This document shows positions 1 through 51,747 of a stretch of 64,000 bases of DNA, piece after piece. Position 1 is the stretch's first letter; the number at the start of each line of letters is the position of its first letter. The DNA is from Candidatus Iainarchaeum sp. (GTDB lineage: Archaea; Iainarchaeota; Iainarchaeia; Iainarchaeales; JACQJH01). The translations under genes and the position numbers were made by a program. The stretch is from the NCBI GenBank assembly GCA_016205145.1, contig JACQJH010000001.1, positions 195,501 through 259,500 of the forward strand. Direction: 5' to 3'. Below the pieces are notes generated by a model. That model was not told where the DNA came from and did no database searches. It saw only the letters and a program-made list of their open reading frames with translations.

Positions 1-193
1 ACCTTTCAGGGCTCTTCGAATATTCGACTATCTCGATTTTTTTTCCAAGCCTTTCGGAGAGCCTTTTCACGTTCTGGGCGCCCTTGCCGATTGCCCTGCC
101 CACATCTTTTCCCCAGACAAGGAAAGAGACAGTGGAACCGTCAACAATGCAGTCCCTTGCCCCGACACCCGAAATTTTTTCAAGCGCGTTCAT
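1..193 (-). CDS. nusA: NusA-like KH-domain transcription elongation factor, N-terminal part only (gene runs off the window start)
   Basis: Reverse-complement translation from an ATG at 193 gives MNALEKISGVGARDCIVDGSTVSFLVWGKDVGRAIGKGAQNVKRLSERLGKKIEIVEYS, typical of the archaeal NusA KH domain. Its position downstream of L30e matches the conserved rpo operon order. Confidence 0.6.
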   Translation of the reverse strand, partial: MNALEKISGVGARDCIVDGSTVSFLVWGKDVGRAIGKGAQNVKRLSERLGKKIEIVEYSKSPER

Positions 194-229
194 CAGCATT
201 ATCTCCTCTAAGCCAAGCTTCATCCAATG

Positions 230-538
230 TCACTTTGCAATTATGTCCAAGACCCTGCTCTTGCCCGTTTCTTCCACGGTGAGAGTTGAAATCACAAAAG
301 GCTTTCCGCAGACCGAACCGAGCGAAAGCCCCGTTCCTTCGAACTCGAAAACCGGGACGTTGCAGGTTTTTCCGAGATTCCGGATTTTTTCCTTGACCGT
401 CACGGGCGAGTCGAGGCTCACTACGACAAGCGCGCCTTTTCCGCCTAGCACGCTTTTCTCGCTCTGCCTCACGCCGAAAACAACCTTTCCGGTGTCCACG
501 GCCCTGCGTATTTCCCTTTTCGCGTCAACTTCTGCCAT
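230..538 (-). CDS. rpl30e: 50S ribosomal protein L30e
   Basis: 102-aa ORF (AEVDAKREIRRAVDTGKVVFGVRQSEKSVLGGKGALVVVS...). Conserved placement between rpoA'' and nusA in archaea. Confidence 0.85.
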   Translation of the reverse strand: MAEVDAKREIRRAVDTGKVVFGVRQSEKSVLGGKGALVVVSLDSPVTVKEKIRNLGKTCNVPVFEFEGTGLSLGSVCGKPFVISTLTVEETGKSRVLDIIAK

Positions 539-663
539 GCAGTATCACTGAACAAAATTGCACAGCCGGAACGAAAAAAACAGAAGGATTCAAAAGAAGC
601 GCCTTCTCATTTTTTACTCCAGCGCAATAAGACCTGTCCGGGCAAGCATTTTAAAAAGCAATC

Positions 664-774
664 CCCGGCGATTTCGTCCGCCGGGTTCGACGACGGGTAT
701 TCTTCGCAAACCATTGGTTTGCGACGTGCCCAGAATCTTCGGATTCTGGAGCATCGCTTCGCTCAATACCCCTC
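664..774 (+). repeat. Intergenic composite element: D/E hairpins with module B inserted in the second hairpin loop (L30e-rpoA'' spacer)
   Basis: CGGCGATTTCGTCCGCCG GGTTCGACGAC GGGTATTCTTCGC [AAACCATTGGTTTGCGACGTGCCCAGAATCTTCGGATTCTGGAGCATCGC] TTCGCTCAATACCC. The bracketed 50 nt are module B. Confidence 0.75.
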
Positions 775-794
775 TGTCCGCCTTTAAATCTCTT

Positions 795-2060
795 TCACTT
801 GCCCCCCTTCATCACCAATTCGACTATTCCCGTGCCGACTTTTATCGGCTGGCCGACGATTATGTTTTCAACGACGCCTTCAAGGTTTTCGACTTCGCCC
901 TTGAATGCCGCGTCAAGCAGATGCTTTATTGTTTCCTCGAACGCGGCTCTCGCGAACGGCGAGCTTTTCTCGCGCGTTATTCCCGTCCTGACTATGCCCT
1001 TGATGTCGCCGCTGTAAGTCATCATGTCCGCAAGCAAAATGATGTGCCTGACGTCGACGGCGATTCCGTTGTCGTCAAGCGTCTTCTTGAGTTCCTTGAC
1101 AATCATGGCTCTCGCAGCCTCTATTCCGAAAACCTTGCTGATTTCCATGACATCGTTTGTCGTGGTCCTCGCGGGATCGATTTCCTTGAGCTTCAAAACG
1201 CTTTTCATGTTGCTGCCGGAAGTCTTGATGACGAACTCGCCTTTTTCCTCGACAAGAAGCGTCTTTGTTATGCCCTTCACGCCCTGCACCCTTGAATTCA
1301 GCAGCTTCAGCAAGTGCTTCCTTATTTTCAGCAGGGATTCCTTTTTTGAAAACGAGAATTCGACGACGTTCTTGCGCTGCCTCGCCTCGCCAAGCTTTAG
1401 GCCGGTCTTGATTTTGTCGACAAGGTCTTTTTCGTCGACGTTTCTCGCCTCGGCCTTGGCTTCGTCGATTTCTATCTGCAGCACGTTGTTGGCAAAGTTT
1501 TCCTTCACGCTGACAACGTCGGAAATCCTGACGTCCAAGAGAGATTTGGCAAACTTGTCGGCTTCCTTGCCGTTTTTTCCAAGCCCGCCGTCCAGATAAA
1601 TCGTCATTGTCGGATACTTGGCTTTGCTCCTGCCGTCGACTATCTCTTCAACCCTCTGGATTCCCGAGCCGACTGAAACTTCCGCTGCGCCCGCATAGTG
1701 CTTTGTCCTCAAAGTAAGCTGGGTTGCCGGCTCGCCAAGCGACTGCGCGGCGACAATGCCGACAGCTTCGCCCGGTTCAACGACAAGGTTTTCATAGCGC
1801 TCCTTTATTTTTTCCGCCAGAATGCCCGCTTTTTCCCTGCTCATGTTCTTTTTTTCCGCAAACAAGACGATTTCGTCAAGCACTTTTTTCGGCAGTTCGA
1901 CTTTTTCCCAGGAGCGGAGCTCTATTTTCGGGATTTCACGGTCCTTCCTGCTTTTTTCCTCGGCCTCTTCGGCAACTTCTTCAGCTTCTTCTTCGGCCTC
2001 TTCGCTGTCCTCAAGGGCTTCGTCTTTTTTTTCCGGGGTTTTCTTTTTCTTTGCCGCCAT
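795..2060 (-). CDS. rpoA2: DNA-directed RNA polymerase subunit A'' (C-terminal part of the split largest subunit)
   Basis: 421 aa with an acidic/basic N-terminal tail, then motifs conserved in RpoA'' (VVEPGEAVGIVAAQSLGEPATQLTLRTKHYAGAAEVSVGSGIQRVEEIVDG). Confidence 0.9.
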   Translation of the reverse strand: MAAKKKKTPEKKDEALEDSEEAEEEAEEVAEEAEEKSRKDREIPKIELRSWEKVELPKKVLDEIVLFAEKKNMSREKAGILAEKIKERYENLVVEPGEAVGIVAAQSLGEPATQLTLRTKHYAGAAEVSVGSGIQRVEEIVDGRSKAKYPTMTIYLDGGLGKNGKEADKFAKSLLDVRISDVVSVKENFANNVLQIEIDEAKAEARNVDEKDLVDKIKTGLKLGEARQRKNVVEFSFSKKESLLKIRKHLLKLLNSRVQGVKGITKTLLVEEKGEFVIKTSGSNMKSVLKLKEIDPARTTTNDVMEISKVFGIEAARAMIVKELKKTLDDNGIAVDVRHIILLADMMTYSGDIKGIVRTGITREKSSPFARAAFEETIKHLLDAAFKGEVENLEGVVENIIVGQPIKVGTGIVELVMKGGK

Positions 2061-10151: not shown

Positions 10152-10469
10152 TCATTTTATCGCCTTTCCCGTCGCCACCGCCTCGCTGACGATGCCTATC
10201 CGCCTGGCTTTTTCCTCGAATTCTTCGGGCGTATAGCACAGGCTTTCAAGCTGCTGTTTTTCGTTCCAGTAATCGTACATTTTTTCCATTCTGCTGAAAA
10301 AATTGGTCCCCTCAAACTTCTTGCTGACGATTATGAAATCATAGTCGGATTCTTCCAAAGCCCCGCCTTTGGCCCTTGAACCGAAAAGGATTATTCTGGC
10401 GTCCGAGAAATCCTTTTTGACTTTGTGCGCGAATGCAGCGATTATTTGCTTATCTGTTTTTCCGCCCAT
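10152..10469 (-). CDS. Nucleotidyltransferase (MNT) domain protein, antitoxin-like partner of HEPN
   Basis: 105 aa with a minimal nucleotidyltransferase motif (IILFGSRAKGGALEESDYDFIIVS). Confidence 0.8.
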   Translation of the reverse strand: MGGKTDKQIIAAFAHKVKKDFSDARIILFGSRAKGGALEESDYDFIIVSKKFEGTNFFSRMEKMYDYWNEKQQLESLCYTPEEFEEKARRIGIVSEAVATGKAIK

Positions 10470-10825
10470 TCAAAAACCTCTTTTGCGTTTTCAAGCAGTT
10501 CTTCCGCCATTTCGTCGCTGTAAGCGTCTTTTGGAATCGCGTTTGCGGCATCCGGATAGCGTGTTTGCACGTAGTGCGGATTGATTTTCCTGCAAGCTGA
10601 AACGATTTTTTCCGGCGCTTCAAGCTCTTCGGCCAATGCAATAATATTGTGCAGTGTCGTGCCCTTGTTCTTTTGCAGGATAAAAATAGCTTTCAAGGCC
10701 TTTTCAGCCGCCTGCTGGCAGTAAAACGCGCATGCGTAATAGACATCCTGCGAAAAAAGGATTTTTGCTGTTTCGAGGTCGTCTTCCGCCGCGTTAAGCC
10801 AGTCTAGGACTTCCTTGCGCATCAT
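10442..10825 (-). CDS. HEPN domain protein (toxin-like partner of MNT)
   Basis: 127-aa all-alpha protein (YYACAFYCQQAAEKALKAIF...). It overlaps the MNT gene by about 28 nt, which is the typical HEPN/MNT two-gene arrangement. Confidence 0.8.
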   Translation of the reverse strand: MMRKEVLDWLNAAEDDLETAKILFSQDVYYACAFYCQQAAEKALKAIFILQKNKGTTLHNIIALAEELEAPEKIVSACRKINPHYVQTRYPDAANAIPKDAYSDEMAEELLENAKEVFEWAEKQISK

Positions 10826-32865: not shown

Positions 32866-33816
32866 TTAATTTGCGCTTGGCTTAAGGCTTTTTTTTGCGG
32901 CTTTTTTGCCTGGAAGCAGGCATTCTTTGTACTGGTTTATGTATGCTTTGTAGAGGTATTTGACGAACGGGCTTTCCTTTTTTTTCGCGTCGACTTCCCT
33001 CAGCATCAGGTAATACAGCATTTTTTCGGAGTTGAAAATGTTCAGCAAAGGATAATTGTTTTTGAACAGCAGATGGTTCATCGCCAGCCTTGAAATCCTG
33101 CCGTTCCCGTCCATGAACGGGTGGATTCTCACGATTTTCAAATGGGCCAATGCAGCGGTTTCAAAGGGGTGCAGGGTTTGTCCGGCCTGCTTAATCCATG
33201 AGAAAAATTTGTCCAGTTCCGGCTGGACCTGTTCCGGTTTCGGCGGCAGATAGTTTCCGACAATGTTCTGCCTCGTCCTGATTCTGCCTGCTTCGGGATG
33301 GATGCCATTCATTTCGATTGCATGGAGTTTAAGCAACAGGCTTTGGTCGAATTTGCCGTTGTAACCAAACAGGAAATCAATGCATTCTTTCATGTTTTCG
33401 ACTTCCCGGACGTCGCGCTTCGCATGCCTTGCCACAGGCTTCCCTTCAAGGATATTTTTCGTTTCCTCATAGCTCAGGGAATTGCCCTCGATTGCGTTGG
33501 TGTTGTAAATGAAGCTTATTATCTGCTCTTTTTCGGTTTTCCACAGGCCTTTGCCTATTTTGCGGGTTTTCAGGTAATTTTCCCTGAGCAGGTCGATTAT
33601 TTTCATCTGCTTCAGCGTCAAAATCCTCCCGATCGGCTGGGCAAGTTCAAGCTCCTTTTCGGCCTGGGCAAGGTTCGACAGGTCGGTTCCGACATATTTG
33701 CTTATTTTTTTCCACTTGTTTTTGGAGACACGGATGTTTTTCATCAGGTAAAAATACCCGCGGCCGCCGATTTTCTTTTTCTCGATATATGGCATGGTAA
33801 AAATTAGGGGGCACAA
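32866..33816 (-). CDS. Fic/DOC family protein (putative AMPylator)
   Basis: Canonical Fic motif HPFMDGNGRISRLAMNHLL in a 316-aa protein. Confidence 0.85.
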   Translation of the reverse strand: MCPLIFTMPYIEKKKIGGRGYFYLMKNIRVSKNKWKKISKYVGTDLSNLAQAEKELELAQPIGRILTLKQMKIIDLLRENYLKTRKIGKGLWKTEKEQIISFIYNTNAIEGNSLSYEETKNILEGKPVARHAKRDVREVENMKECIDFLFGYNGKFDQSLLLKLHAIEMNGIHPEAGRIRTRQNIVGNYLPPKPEQVQPELDKFFSWIKQAGQTLHPFETAALAHLKIVRIHPFMDGNGRISRLAMNHLLFKNNYPLLNIFNSEKMLYYLMLREVDAKKKESPFVKYLYKAYINQYKECLLPGKKAAKKSLKPSAN

Positions 33817-41276: not shown

Positions 41277-41420
41277 CGTCATCGCCCGGAGCCGTCACGT
41301 CCGGCTGATACGTGCGGCACGTAAAGTGCCGCTGCCTCGCTGTTGCTCGGAACCGGCGGGTGCGACGTTGAGGATTCTCACTGCATTCGAATCCTCTGCC
41401 TGCTTAATTAGTTTTTTTGC
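41277..41420 (+). repeat. Variant nested hairpin element downstream of hppA
   Basis: TCGCCGTCATCGCCCGG [AGCCGTCACGTCCGGCTG ATACGTGCGGCACGTAAAGTGCCGC ...] CGGCGGGTGCGAC GTTGAGGATTCTCACTGCATTCGAATCCTC: an H1' hairpin split by an inserted H1-like hairpin, followed by a B-like hairpin. Confidence 0.6.
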
Positions 41421-41590
41421 TCGTAGAATTTGTGGAACTTTGTGTGCAGAATGCCTTCGCCTTGTTCAGTCTTTCAGTCATTCCGGTTCAATTCCTGATG
41501 GCAATGGGCCTTTTGCAGTTCGCCACAGCCATGCCTGGCGCAACAATCGCGTTCCCGGTTTACTTTCCCAGAAACGCAAAAAATTAGGAA

Positions 41591-41736
41591 TGCCCCGGCC
41601 GGGATTCGAACCCGGGTCGCGGCCTCACCCCGCTCTTGAATTTTTTGGAAAATCCTTGAGAGGGCCGAGTGCTTTCGGCAACAGCTGCTTTTTTTTATAA
41701 AAACAAACCGTTTTAGCCGGACTACACCACCGGGGC
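41591..41736 (-). tRNA. tRNA-Glu(CTC) carrying two introns (about 40 nt in the D-loop plus about 31 nt at 37/38)
   Basis: Exon 1 GCCCCGGTGGTGTAGTCCGGCTAAA, exon 2 CACTCGGCCCTCTCA, exon 3 AGGCCGCGACCCGGGTTCGAATCCCGGCCGGGGCA. Once spliced it matches the archaeal tRNA-Glu/Gln scaffold (D-arm GTGTAGTCCGGC, T-arm CCGGGTTCGAATCCCGG). The anticodon stem CGGCC/GGCCG is perfect. Confidence 0.65.
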
Positions 41737-42498
41737 ACTGCAGAATTTTTTGAACCTGTTTATGTGCTTTTTGTTGCTGAACCCGATTTCAGTGAAATAA
41801 CGCAGGACTTCTTTAGAATCTCCCATTGAGCACTGCATTGTATTCCTGTCCTTCTTTTGGGTCCATTTAGATACTCTGTAGCCCAATATTTTAAATGCCT
41901 TTGTTATGCTGCTTTGGATTGTAGGCGATGCCGTGGCGAACCAGATTGTGGGCGTTTTGTGCCTGCGCGTTTTCGGGTAAACGCTTCCGTCAGTGTCAAT
42001 CAATCCCCTGACACAGGCTTTAAGGTAACCGCTTTTTCCAAGAACCCAGCAGGGAATTGCCGCGCCATTCGTGGTTTTATTGCCGTTTTTTATGCCAAAA
42101 TGCATCAGCGTGTGCACCAAATTTTTGCTTTGCTTGAATATGACGACAGCGTTTCCGGTTTTTGGAAATTTTATGCTGAATTCGGTTCCAAACACTTTTT
42201 TGAACAGGCCCGAAGTATAATTTGTCAGATAATCAAAATCGTTCCCGCGATGGCCTATAATTCTTATTTGGTAAATGCTTTTTTCTTTTATAACCTGGCA
42301 GTTTCCGTCGCCAAGCATTATGCCGATAATTTCCGCAAGCTCCGCGCTTTTCTTTTTTGCAAGCAATTTCGGTTTCATCGGCAAGAATTTGCCGTTCTTC
42401 CGCGGCTGCAGCCGGCAATTACCCATAATGTACTGTTGTTTTTGTGGACAAAAGGGGTTTGCCAAGTGGCTTTCCCCTGATTCTTGATTTGGCCTCAC
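41722..42498 (-). CDS. Free-standing LAGLIDADG-family homing endonuclease (two LAGLIDADG motifs)
   Basis: Motif 1 AEIIGIMLGDGN and motif 2 RGLIDTDGSV are separated by about 100 aa, the arrangement of single-chain LAGLIDADG enzymes. The 3' end overlaps the 5' end of tRNA-Glu by about 15 nt. Confidence 0.75.
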   Translation of the reverse strand: MRPNQESGESHLANPFCPQKQQYIMGNCRLQPRKNGKFLPMKPKLLAKKKSAELAEIIGIMLGDGNCQVIKEKSIYQIRIIGHRGNDFDYLTNYTSGLFKKVFGTEFSIKFPKTGNAVVIFKQSKNLVHTLMHFGIKNGNKTTNGAAIPCWVLGKSGYLKACVRGLIDTDGSVYPKTRRHKTPTIWFATASPTIQSSITKAFKILGYRVSKWTQKKDRNTMQCSMGDSKEVLRYFTEIGFSNKKHINRFKKFCSAPVV

Positions 42499-46932: not shown

Positions 46933-47041
46933 TGCCGGTGGCGAGATATGAACTCGCGGCCTCTTGATTATGAGTTTCGCCCCGCAACACAAAAAAGCTG
47001 AATTGCAGTCAAGCGCTCTAACCAGGCTGAGCTACACCGGC
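46933..47041 (-). tRNA. tRNA-Cys(GCA) with ~34-nt intron at 37/38 (intron 46969..47002)
   Basis: The 5' exon GCCGGTGTAGCTCAGCCTGGTTAGAGCGCTTGACTGCAA and the 3' exon ATCAAGAGGCCGCGAGTTCATATCTCGCCACCGGCA give perfect acceptor and anticodon stems. The T-loop TTCATAT is slightly atypical. A TATA-like CTTTTAAAAGCC sits about 35 nt upstream. Confidence 0.6.
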
Positions 47042-50538: not shown

Positions 50539-51747
50539 ATGTTCCGCTGGCTCAAAAACCTGTTCAGGCCGTCAAGAGGCCCGCACTATTTGATTGAATT
50601 CAGGTTTCATGGTTACACAAAAAAGTATCTGAAGGAAACCATTTTTGACGTCTCGAAAAAGTTCCGCGTTTCAGGCGTTACCAAAAAGCACGTTGTTCCG
50701 CATATAAGCTTGGTTGGGCCGTTTCAAACAAGAAACCAAAGAGAAGTCGTGTCCAAGTTTGTGAACGTGTCCAAAAAATATGGGCGCATAAACTTCAAGT
50801 TGTCAGGATTCCGCCACTTTGACGATCGGGTGGTTTTCGTTGATGTCGAGTCTTCCTCTGAACTGGCCAAATACCGGCAAGACCTGTTCAAAAGCTTGGA
50901 GCCAGTCATTTACACGACCGACACCGACTACCTTGAACCATTCGCGTTCCATTCTACAGTCGCCTTCAAAGACATCCAACACAAATTTGACAGGATTTTC
51001 TCCTATTTGGATAAACAAAAGCCTAAACAAATAAACCAAACCCTGCTCAGGGCCACGTTGTTAAAAGGCGGAAAAATTCTATGCGAATACGATTTCATTC
51101 AAAAAAGGCTGCTCAAACGGAAAGAGGCACTAGACAAAAAACTAATGAAAAAGACGATTGGCATATTGAAGGAAACCAAAAACGCGGACATCACAAAAAT
51201 ACCTGAATTTACGGCCAAAGAAAGCGAAGGAAAACGCACTTTTCTTATAAGCGACCTCCACTTGGACCATGCCAATATTATAAAATTCTGCAAAAGGCCA
51301 TTCAAGAATGTCGAAGAAATGAACCGCGCACTAGTTGATAATTGGAACAAAACTGTCTCTAAAAACGACACGGTTTATTTTTTGGGTGATATGGCATATG
51401 GCAAAAACAGCAGGTCGGCAAAATACTGGCTTTCCAAACTAAACGGCAAAATAGTGTTCATTGAAGGCAATCATGAGGATATTGGCAACATGAAATCATA
51501 CACGCAAATAATACTAAATTTTGGGCAAGAACGATTTCTCTTAATTCATGATCCAGCGCTCAAACCAGCCGACTGGCAAGGATGGGTTATCCACGGGCAC
51601 AAACACAACAACGATTTGTCTGGTTACCCATACATTAACAAAAAAAACAAAACAATCAACGTAAGCGCAGAATTGGTAAATTACACCCCAAAACGGTTAG
51701 ATGAGGTTTGCAAAGAAATTGGGGTGTTTGAATTCAAGATTCTTTAG
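50539..51747 (+). CDS. Fusion protein: N-terminal 2H phosphoesterase (LigT/2'-5' RNA ligase-like) + C-terminal calcineurin-like metallophosphoesterase
   Basis: Two H-x-S/T-x motifs (HISLV, HSTVA) about 85 aa apart in the N-terminal half. Metallophosphatase motifs (LISDLHLD ... GDMAYG ... GNHED ... GHKH) in the C-terminal half. Confidence 0.7.
   Translation: MFRWLKNLFRPSRGPHYLIEFRFHGYTKKYLKETIFDVSKKFRVSGVTKKHVVPHISLVGPFQTRNQREVVSKFVNVSKKYGRINFKLSGFRHFDDRVVFVDVESSSELAKYRQDLFKSLEPVIYTTDTDYLEPFAFHSTVAFKDIQHKFDRIFSYLDKQKPKQINQTLLRATLLKGGKILCEYDFIQKRLLKRKEALDKKLMKKTIGILKETKNADITKIPEFTAKESEGKRTFLISDLHLDHANIIKFCKRPFKNVEEMNRALVDNWNKTVSKNDTVYFLGDMAYGKNSRSAKYWLSKLNGKIVFIEGNHEDIGNMKSYTQIILNFGQERFLLIHDPALKPADWQGWVIHGHKHNNDLSGYPYINKKNKTINVSAELVNYTPKRLDEVCKEIGVFEFKIL

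Follow-up and report, generated by a model that had tools for sequence, protein, structure and literature searches.

The tRNA-Glu gene and its exons and introns

The 64-kb stretch of archaeal DNA analyzed here (from contig JACQJH010000001.1, hereafter the window) carries on its minus strand a gene of 146 nucleotides (nt) for the precursor of tRNA-Glu with the anticodon CUC, which is interrupted by two inserts, one in the D-loop and one in the anticodon loop, each bounded by a motif of the bulge-helix-bulge (BHB) type. Sequence positions are those of the window, and L-numbers denote the loci and sequences compared with it.

The gene is matched from end to end by Rfam family RF00005 at 41591..41736 (38.5 bits against a gathering threshold of 29, E=1.5e-4 for the whole window), with two long inserts in the alignment, namely 48 nt replacing four D-loop positions and 33 nt replacing two anticodon-loop positions. 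This is the lowest Rfam score among the seven tRNAs of the window, and the gene was not called in an ARAGORN run on the window. The boundaries were determined with a solver that removes one or two inserts, requires a full cloverleaf (a 7-bp acceptor stem, a D-stem, a 5-bp anticodon stem with a 7-nt loop containing U33, and a 5-bp T-stem), and ranks the solutions by BHB geometry. The BHB test requires that, on each strand read 5′ to 3′, the 4 nt forming one side of the central helix precede a 3-nt bulge, with the cut placed after bulge nucleotide 2. A single solution is obtained, with the splice pairs p=23/q=64 (20b/21) and p=80/q=112 (37/38), from which the following features, all on the minus strand, are derived.

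41591..41736 (-): pre-tRNA-Glu(CUC) gene, 146 nt (full-length Rfam RF00005 match and unique cloverleaf/BHB solution)
41714..41736 (-): exon 1, tRNA nt 1 to 20b, with the 5′ strands of the acceptor stem and D-stem and the D-loop portion AGUCCGGCUA (solver, p=23)
41674..41713 (-): intron 1, 40 nt, in the D-loop at 20b/21, relaxed HBh' BHB motif (BHB scan and solver)
41716..41719 / 41676..41679 (-): central helix of intron 1, CGGC / GCCG (BHB scan)
41713..41715 / 41673..41675 (-): bulges of intron 1, 5′ UAA / 3′ AAA (BHB scan)
41706..41712 / 41680..41686 (-): inner helix of intron 1, 7 bp, AACGGUU / AGCUGUU (BHB scan)
41657..41673 (-): exon 2, tRNA nt 21 to 37, with A21, the D-stem 3′ strand GCAC, U26, the anticodon stem 5′ strand CGGCC and the loop portion CUCUCA (solver)
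41658..41660 (-): anticodon CUC within exon 2 (solver)
41626..41656 (-): intron 2, 31 nt, at the canonical position 37/38 (BHB scan and solver)
41659..41662 / 41628..41631 (-): central helix of intron 2, CUCU (nt 32-35) / GGGG, with two G-U pairs (BHB scan)
41656..41658 / 41625..41627 (-): bulges of intron 2, CAA / UGA (BHB scan)
41591..41625 (-): exon 3, tRNA nt 38 to 73, with A38, the anticodon stem 3′ strand, the variable loop CGAC, the T-arm, the acceptor 3′ strand and A73 (Rfam alignment and direct reading)
41578..41583 (-): T6 run located 8 nt past the 3′ end of the tRNA, probably an oligo-T terminator of the archaeal type (direct reading)

Cutting after bulge nucleotide 2 and joining of the exons restores a canonical tRNA for both introns. 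The mature tRNA-Glu comprises 75 nt (GCCCCGGUGGUGUAGUCCGGCUAAGCACUCGGCCCUCUCAAGGCCGCGACCCGGGUUCGAAUCCCGGCCGGGGCA) and, on direct reading, all four of its stems are fully paired with zero mismatches, while CCA is not encoded at the 3′ end of exon 3. U8, A14, G18G19, A21, U33, G53-U54-U55-C56, A58, and A73 are all present, the D-loop measures 11 nt, and the anticodon loop is CUCUCAA, a 7-nt loop with U33 and the glutamate anticodon CUC. The marks used to recognize archaeal tRNA-Glu, which are CUC in a 7-nt loop with U33, the D-loop AGUCCGG..AA, and A73, are therefore complete; the D-loop reads AGUCCGGCUAA, compared with AGUCCGGCCAA in L003 and in many metagenome tRNA-Glu genes. The region, including gene and flanks, is identical throughout in an independent Logan assembly of another run (L002, SRR12113383), so a local assembly error can be discounted. 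A plus-strand open reading frame (ORF) that overlaps the gene at 41326..41700 is without a family match and was taken as spurious.

An earlier sequence-only reading of this DNA had proposed introns of about 40 nt in the D-loop and about 31 nt at 37/38, and both are borne out, at 40 and 31 nt, by the unique BHB/cloverleaf solution. A BHB-compatible structure, on which that reading had made the D-loop intron depend, was found at the D-loop insertion, though it is of the relaxed HBh' type. The proposed D-loop site of about 21/22 is moved by the BHB rule to 20b/21, while its product was correct in sequence: since an A-run flanks the junction, cuts at 20a/20b, 20b/21, and 21/22 yield an identical product. 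The expectation that the spliced product would correspond to the archaeal tRNA-Glu scaffold also held, as the mature tRNA is 91-92% identical to those of L110 (91%) and L132 and has the anticodon loop of orthologs that lack the intron.

Structure and significance of the two BHB motifs

The motif of intron 1 consists of two 3-nt bulges on opposite strands with a 4-bp helix between them, the helix being formed by the D-loop residues C17a-G18-G19-C20 and the GCCG at the 3′ end of the intron. Exon-side pairing next to the 3′ bulge is limited to one possible pair, so the motif falls short of the strict hBHBh' form and is classed as relaxed HBh'. In the unconstrained minimum free energy (MFE) fold of the D-arm precursor, the UAA bulge and the 7-bp inner helix are present, as are three of the four pairs of the central helix.

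Intron 2 likewise has two 3-nt bulges and a 4-bp central helix, with the 5-bp anticodon stem as its outer helix. Its inner helix, made up of 1 bp and a hairpin, is weak, which places this motif outside the strict hBHBh' form as well, and both introns thus belong to accepted relaxed classes (HBh'/hBH). In the anticodon arm, a competing CUC/GAG pairing is calculated at -56.6 kcal/mol, compared with -55.1 for the BHB conformer, which lies 1.5 kcal/mol higher.

The probability of such motifs arising by chance was estimated by shuffling each insert while the exons were kept fixed and every splice pair that restores the arm was allowed. A BHB motif as good as the observed one appeared in 0.085% of the shuffles for the D-loop (P=0.00085) and in 1.1% for position 37/38 (P=0.011).

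Intron 1 also contains, at 41698..41712 (-), the stretch GUUUUUAUAAAAAAAA, in which a T5 run and an A/T palindrome resembling a TATA box are found. In the MFE fold, base pairing between the two halves makes up the tip of the intron hairpin, and T runs of five or more were present in 4 of 35 D-loop introns examined.

Orthologous loci, intron states, and covariation

Orthologous loci were defined by a conserved LAGLIDADG gene upstream of the tRNA. Three intron states are found among them: both introns are present in the window, L018, L041, and L122; the D-loop intron alone is present in L124, L126, L132, L133, L134, and L136; and tRNA-Glu is without an intron in L127/128, L129/130, and L135. In eight orthologs (the window and seven others), the D-loop intron is located at exactly one site (p=23). 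In intron-lacking orthologs, among them those without the 37/38 intron, the anticodon loop is CUCUCAA and the D-loop has the form ...GGYUAA-G (UAA before G22), identical to the spliced product predicted for the window. Both splice junctions are fixed by this exact agreement.

Covariation was evaluated for the D-loop intron in an alignment of the eight orthologs with 43 columns, from which the variable hairpin tops had been trimmed; for the 37/38 intron the orthologs are too few for such a test. The expected pairing occurs in 92.5% of the cells compared with 77.8% in shuffles, and the covariation score is 0.536 compared with 0.244 in shuffled alignments, none of the 500 shuffles reaching the observed value. 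Controls in which the register was slid give covariation of 0.02-0.14. Five of the seven inner-helix pairs have changed on both sides among the eight orthologs.

Outside the ortholog set, the closest tRNA-Glu(CUC) by sequence is L110, which has a 65-nt intron at 37/38 and no D-loop intron; the LAGLIDADG gene is absent from this locus, where an M48 peptidase gene lies upstream.

The tRNA-Glu genes of L018, L124, L126, and L136 were not called by Rfam at the gathering threshold and were found by reading the junctions, and the intron-containing genes of L126 and L136 were not called by ARAGORN either. In terms of annotation, the tRNA-Glu gene of the window is itself missed by ARAGORN and merely marginal in Rfam. 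DPANN genomes are often reported to be short of tRNAs, and cases such as this one explain part of the gap; an apparent "missing tRNA-Glu" in such genomes may often be an unrecognized intron-containing gene. The presence and absence of introns across orthologous loci also provide material for studying the gain and loss of BHB introns.

Similar genes in genomes and metagenomes

When species-representative genomes were scanned for the exact 34-nt exon 3, the sole match was a metagenome-assembled genome (MAG) of the Methanosarcinales, which is not closely related; the tRNA-Glu(CUC) of this MAG contains one intron, in the anticodon loop, and its D-loop is intact. Metagenomes were scanned with the pattern GTGTAGTCCGG, 80-110 nt, GGGTTCRAATCCC, which admits inserts totaling about 48-78 nt; at least 120 loci were matched. 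The matches listed comprise 83 distinct precursors, of which 57 were solved and 26 were not. A D-loop intron is present in at least 33 distinct tRNA-Glu/Asp genes of the 57 solved, at least 18 of which also have a 37/38 intron, and these counts, coming from a length-selected scan, are not prevalences. Among the matches listed, the cut of the D-loop introns follows position 19, 20, or 21 according to lineage, and all of their motifs have two exon-side pairs or fewer, so that the relaxed form is the rule for these D-loop motifs.

A group of tRNA-Glu(UUC) genes among the matches listed (L007, L010, L013, L016, L035, L038, L052, L073, L077, L113, and L116) has a different arrangement, in which the D-loop intron lies one position further 3′, with the cut after mature nt 24, and a second intron of about 30 nt, with the central helix GGUG/CAUU, is located at a non-canonical site near the border of the variable loop and T-stem instead of at 37/38.

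Proposed splicing pathway

The proposed pathway would begin with transcription of the 146-nt precursor, either from an A/T-rich stretch in the 3′-terminal part of the LAGLIDADG ORF upstream or by read-through from that ORF, and transcription would most likely end at the T6 run. In the precursor, C17a-G18-G19-C20 would pair with GCCG, leaving the UAA and AAA bulges, and the 7-bp intron hairpin would stack on this 4-bp helix; nt 32-35 (CUCU) would pair with the GGGG close to where intron 2 ends on its 3′ side, beside the anticodon stem. The archaeal tRNA-intron endonuclease EndA would then cut after nucleotide 2 of each 3-nt bulge, and an RtcB-type ligase would join the three exons into the 75-nt tRNA, to which CCA would be added afterwards.

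The D-loop motif is without an exon-side helix, and because of this the EndA of the organism is predicted to be of a broad-specificity type, probably the L3-loop or epsilon2 form as in intron-rich DPANN archaea. Relaxed D-loop motifs have been reported to require broad-specificity EndA: the D-loop intron in tRNA-Glu of Methanopyrus kandleri is removed by the (alpha-beta)2 EndA of Aeropyrum pernix and removed poorly by the EndA of Archaeoglobus fulgidus and by fused M. kandleri EndA (PMC5829648). Intron-rich DPANN lineages have EndA with an extra "L3" loop or in the epsilon2 form (PMC5829648, PMC3239211). If correct, the prediction would assign a broad-specificity EndA to the lineage of the window.

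A 402-amino-acid protein encoded at 50539..51747 (+) has a domain of the 2'-5' RNA ligase / 2H phosphoesterase superfamily at residues 50-163. Members of the 2H phosphoesterase superfamily act on RNA ends with 2',3'-cyclic phosphate, the type of end left by EndA; any link of this protein to tRNA splicing would be hypothetical.

The upstream LAGLIDADG gene

The gene that adjoins the 5′ end of tRNA-Glu is as follows.

41722..42498 (-): free-standing gene for a LAGLIDADG homing endonuclease, 258 codons starting at GTG (NCBI: 234 amino acids), genomic context rather than a part of the tRNA; assigned from Pfam, motifs, and NCBI name

The ORF matches Pfam LAGLIDADG_3 (PF14528) with 25.4 bits against a cut-off of 22.5 and has two motifs, IIGIMLGDGN and RGLIDTDGSV, with both catalytic-motif aspartates present; a PDB sequence search with the ORF gave no match. 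Homologs with 39-65% protein identity occur in Diapherotrites, Woesearchaeota, and Nanoarchaeota, and the gene lies against the 5′ end of tRNA-Glu, or of tRNA-Gln in L137, in all 13 DPANN contexts examined, which comprise the window, L018, L124, and L126-L137.

The last codons of the ORF, GCC CCG GUG GUG UAG, are at the same time nt 1-15 of tRNA-Glu. For the window, L124, L126, L127/128, L129/130, and L132-L134, the stop is an in-frame UAG that coincides with nt 13-15 of the tRNA. In L135 the stop codon at this position is UAA; the ORF of L018 ends 1 nt and that of L136 47 nt ahead of the tRNA, and in L137 the end falls on nt 8-10 of tRNA-Gln. If the tRNA were excised from a read-through transcript, the ORF would therefore lose its stop codon. 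In L122, the C-terminal 64 codons or so of the ORF are left at 426..617 (-), between tRNAs at 606..710 and 293..437 and directly upstream of the two-intron tRNA-Glu, and this remnant looks like the decay of a selfish element. No description of the linkage between LAGLIDADG genes and tRNA-Glu was found in the literature searched, the coverage of which was incomplete and makes this weak evidence of novelty.

In L137, a Nanoarchaeota MAG, the LAGLIDADG homolog stands head to head with a gene for a tRNA-intron endonuclease of 173 amino acids (PF01974 and PF02778, alpha4-sized), the pair occupying 157..678 (-) and 782..1693 (+); this is a single case that may be a coincidence.

Weighing of alternative explanations

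Very probably, the locus is the gene from which a Diapherotrites (DPANN) archaeon makes a functional tRNA-Glu(CUC), and it contains two introns that would be spliced by proteins. Several points weigh against this. The covariation was obtained from eight sequences in about three clusters, with a solver that presupposed a fully paired central helix; the 37/38 motif is not the MFE fold and has two G-U central pairs and a 1-bp inner helix; and strict-specificity EndA enzymes cut motifs without an exon-side helix poorly (PMC5829648). At the T5 run of intron 1, archaeal RNA polymerase could to some extent terminate too early. A search for TATA-like motifs upstream of the window tRNAs and the orthologous tRNA-Glu genes found no consistently placed element, the 70 nt upstream of the window's tRNA-Glu being LAGLIDADG coding sequence. 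Neither EndA nor RtcB was found in the window when 58 non-overlapping ORFs of at least 110 amino acids, bar a few short ones, were compared with Pfam and NCBIfam, and the splicing itself is a prediction from the sequence. The relaxed form of the D-loop motif and the weakness of the 37/38 motif, together with the low Rfam score and the missing ARAGORN call, would also suit a former tRNA-Glu that was inactivated by two insertions, with the working tRNA-Glu(CUC) encoded elsewhere in the genome. Such a pseudogene is nevertheless very unlikely: the 75 exon nucleotides have accumulated zero stem mismatches and lost zero universal residues, a BHB cut at the precise sites of both inserts restores the tRNA, a situation that seldom arises by chance, seven further orthologs retain the D-loop intron at an identical site and show compensatory changes, and the syntenic locus in relatives is a tRNA-Glu(CUC) gene. 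A second intact tRNA-Glu(CUC), which the sequence-only reading had named as the sign of a pseudogene, was not found within the 64-kb window, where no other tRNA-Glu is present. The presence of the T5 run and the A/T palindrome in intron 1 could further suggest a cis-split gene, in which the run and the TATA-like TTTTTATAAAAAAAA would end one transcript and start another, to be joined in trans like the split tRNAs of Nanoarchaeum. This was rejected and is the least credible of the alternatives, since a start about 25 nt downstream of the A/T box would fall at the border of intron 1 and exon 2, so that the downstream transcript would be without the 3′ strand of either BHB helix, inner or central. 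The A/T runs merely form the hairpin top, and in the orthologous introns of L126 and L132-L134 the runs are absent while the hairpin is kept.

A further proposal addresses why the D-loop intron exists and is compatible with a normal BHB intron at the RNA level. The LAGLIDADG gene would be a homing element that lands at tRNA-Glu/Gln genes across DPANN archaea, and in this clade the D-loop BHB intron would travel with it or be kept by it as a co-inherited mobile unit. Two routes are conceivable, namely interruption of the D-arm target of the endonuclease, through which the intron would persist or spread (collaborative homing), and carriage in repair tracts. The adjacency in 13 of 13 contexts across three lineages, the decayed remnant at the same place in L122, the retained catalytic-motif aspartates, the D-loop intron in 10 endonuclease-linked tRNA-Glu loci, and its absence from the endonuclease-free relative L110 speak for this proposal. 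On the other hand, the endonuclease-linked tRNA-Glu types L127/128, L129/130, and L135 and the tRNA-Gln locus L137 are intron-free and would be self-targets; among the matches listed, the LAGLIDADG gene occurs at just 2 of the 25 metagenomic loci that have a D-loop intron and a sufficient length of upstream sequence; for the same intron in M. kandleri, a LAGLIDADG link is not reported; and the conserved adjacency could be plain inherited gene order. The intron link is thus considered improbable, while for the narrower claim that the LAGLIDADG gene is a tRNA-Glu-targeted selfish element, which is likelier, the chances appear roughly even. The adjacent gene is the sole element of the locus that might lead to something new: the mechanism by which archaeal tRNA introns are transposed is described as "still unknown" in a review (PMC4090602), and an endonuclease-intron link, if true, would be a DNA-level route for their gain and spread. 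The arrangement resembles phage systems in which the neighbor of a free-standing endonuclease gene is a gene with an intron or one for a tRNA, and differs from them in that a LAGLIDADG gene of an archaeon lies beside a tRNA with a BHB intron, whereas the phage systems involve group I introns or GIY-YIG enzymes. In the collaborative homing of cyanophage psbA, a free-standing endonuclease acts with a neighboring endonuclease-less intron, and SegB of phage T4 sits in a tRNA gene cluster.

Other features of the window

Apart from the two-intron tRNA-Glu gene, a second intron-containing tRNA gene is present.

46933..47041 (-): intron-containing tRNA with the anticodon CAU (Met or Ile2), supported by the BHB motif and intron-free orthologs
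46976..47009 (-): 34-nt intron of tRNA(CAU) at 30/31, full BHB with 4/4 central pairs, a 3-bp outer helix, and a 7-bp inner helix

Intron-free orthologs downstream of RpiA in L126, L127, L129, and L132 match the spliced tRNA(CAU). The Rfam alignment presents this gene as a Cys(GCA) tRNA with a 37/38 intron, an assignment that was rejected, as just one of the four central-helix pairs forms; standard finders would assign the gene to Cys rather than CAU, and ARAGORN did not call it in the window. With two of the seven window tRNAs carrying a non-canonical intron, the intron-rich tRNA biology suggested by the sequence-only reading is supported.

Two further genes, unrelated to tRNA-Glu, may be toxin or defense components: a small HEPN-domain protein at 10442..10825 (-) and a Fic/DOC-family protein at 32866..33816 (-).

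Taxonomic placement and comparison with known systems

RpoB is split into B'' and B', and RpoB' is 100% identical to a protein of a MAG named "Candidatus Diapherotrites archaeon" at NCBI, the next relatives, at 75% identity or less, being Diapherotrites and Micrarchaeota. On this match and the split RpoB, the organism is placed in DPANN and not in Thermoproteales, which retains one half of the earlier taxonomic hint to these two groups and dismisses the other. The accompanying view that non-canonical multi-intron designs are characteristic of a few lineages is correct in so far as the design occurs in DPANN, and too narrow in view of M. kandleri (PMC5829648) and the 33 or more metagenomic genes.

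The tRNA set of Diapherotrites is not described in PMC3239211 or PMC5829648. Disrupted tRNA genes in ARMAN-2 (Micrarchaeota) and other DPANN archaea go with epsilon2 or L3-loop alpha4 EndA, and those of ARMAN-2 differ from the present gene in having introns at 53/54 and 59/60, in the T-loop (PMC3239211, PMC5829648). The multi-intron and non-canonical-intron tRNAs of Crenarchaeota/Thermoproteales known from SPLITS-type searches have BHB/HBh' motifs at transplantable sites and can have several introns per gene; 20/21 and 30/31 are both listed among the non-canonical intron sites (PMC4090602). Those archaea are of a different lineage and use an (alpha-beta)2 EndA with a Crenarchaea-specific loop.

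The closest known counterpart is tRNA-Glu(UUC) of M. kandleri, which has an HBh' intron at 20b/21 and a canonical 37/38 intron (PMC5829648). The two genes share the tRNA-Glu identity, the relaxed D-loop motif at 20b/21 combined with the 37/38 intron, and a D-loop cut that relies, or in the window would rely, on a broad-specificity EndA (PMC5829648). M. kandleri is a hyperthermophilic euryarchaeon with the anticodon UUC and an (alpha-beta)2 EndA, whereas the present gene belongs to a DPANN MAG and carries CUC, and the likeness refers to the intron sites. The two-intron architecture of tRNA-Glu is thus already known, and the accepted picture of archaeal tRNA splicing is unchanged by this locus; what is new is its occurrence in the Diapherotrites lineage, the series of orthologs with differing intron states, and the support from covariation, and Diapherotrites joins the lineages that have the 20b/21 and 37/38 design of tRNA-Glu.

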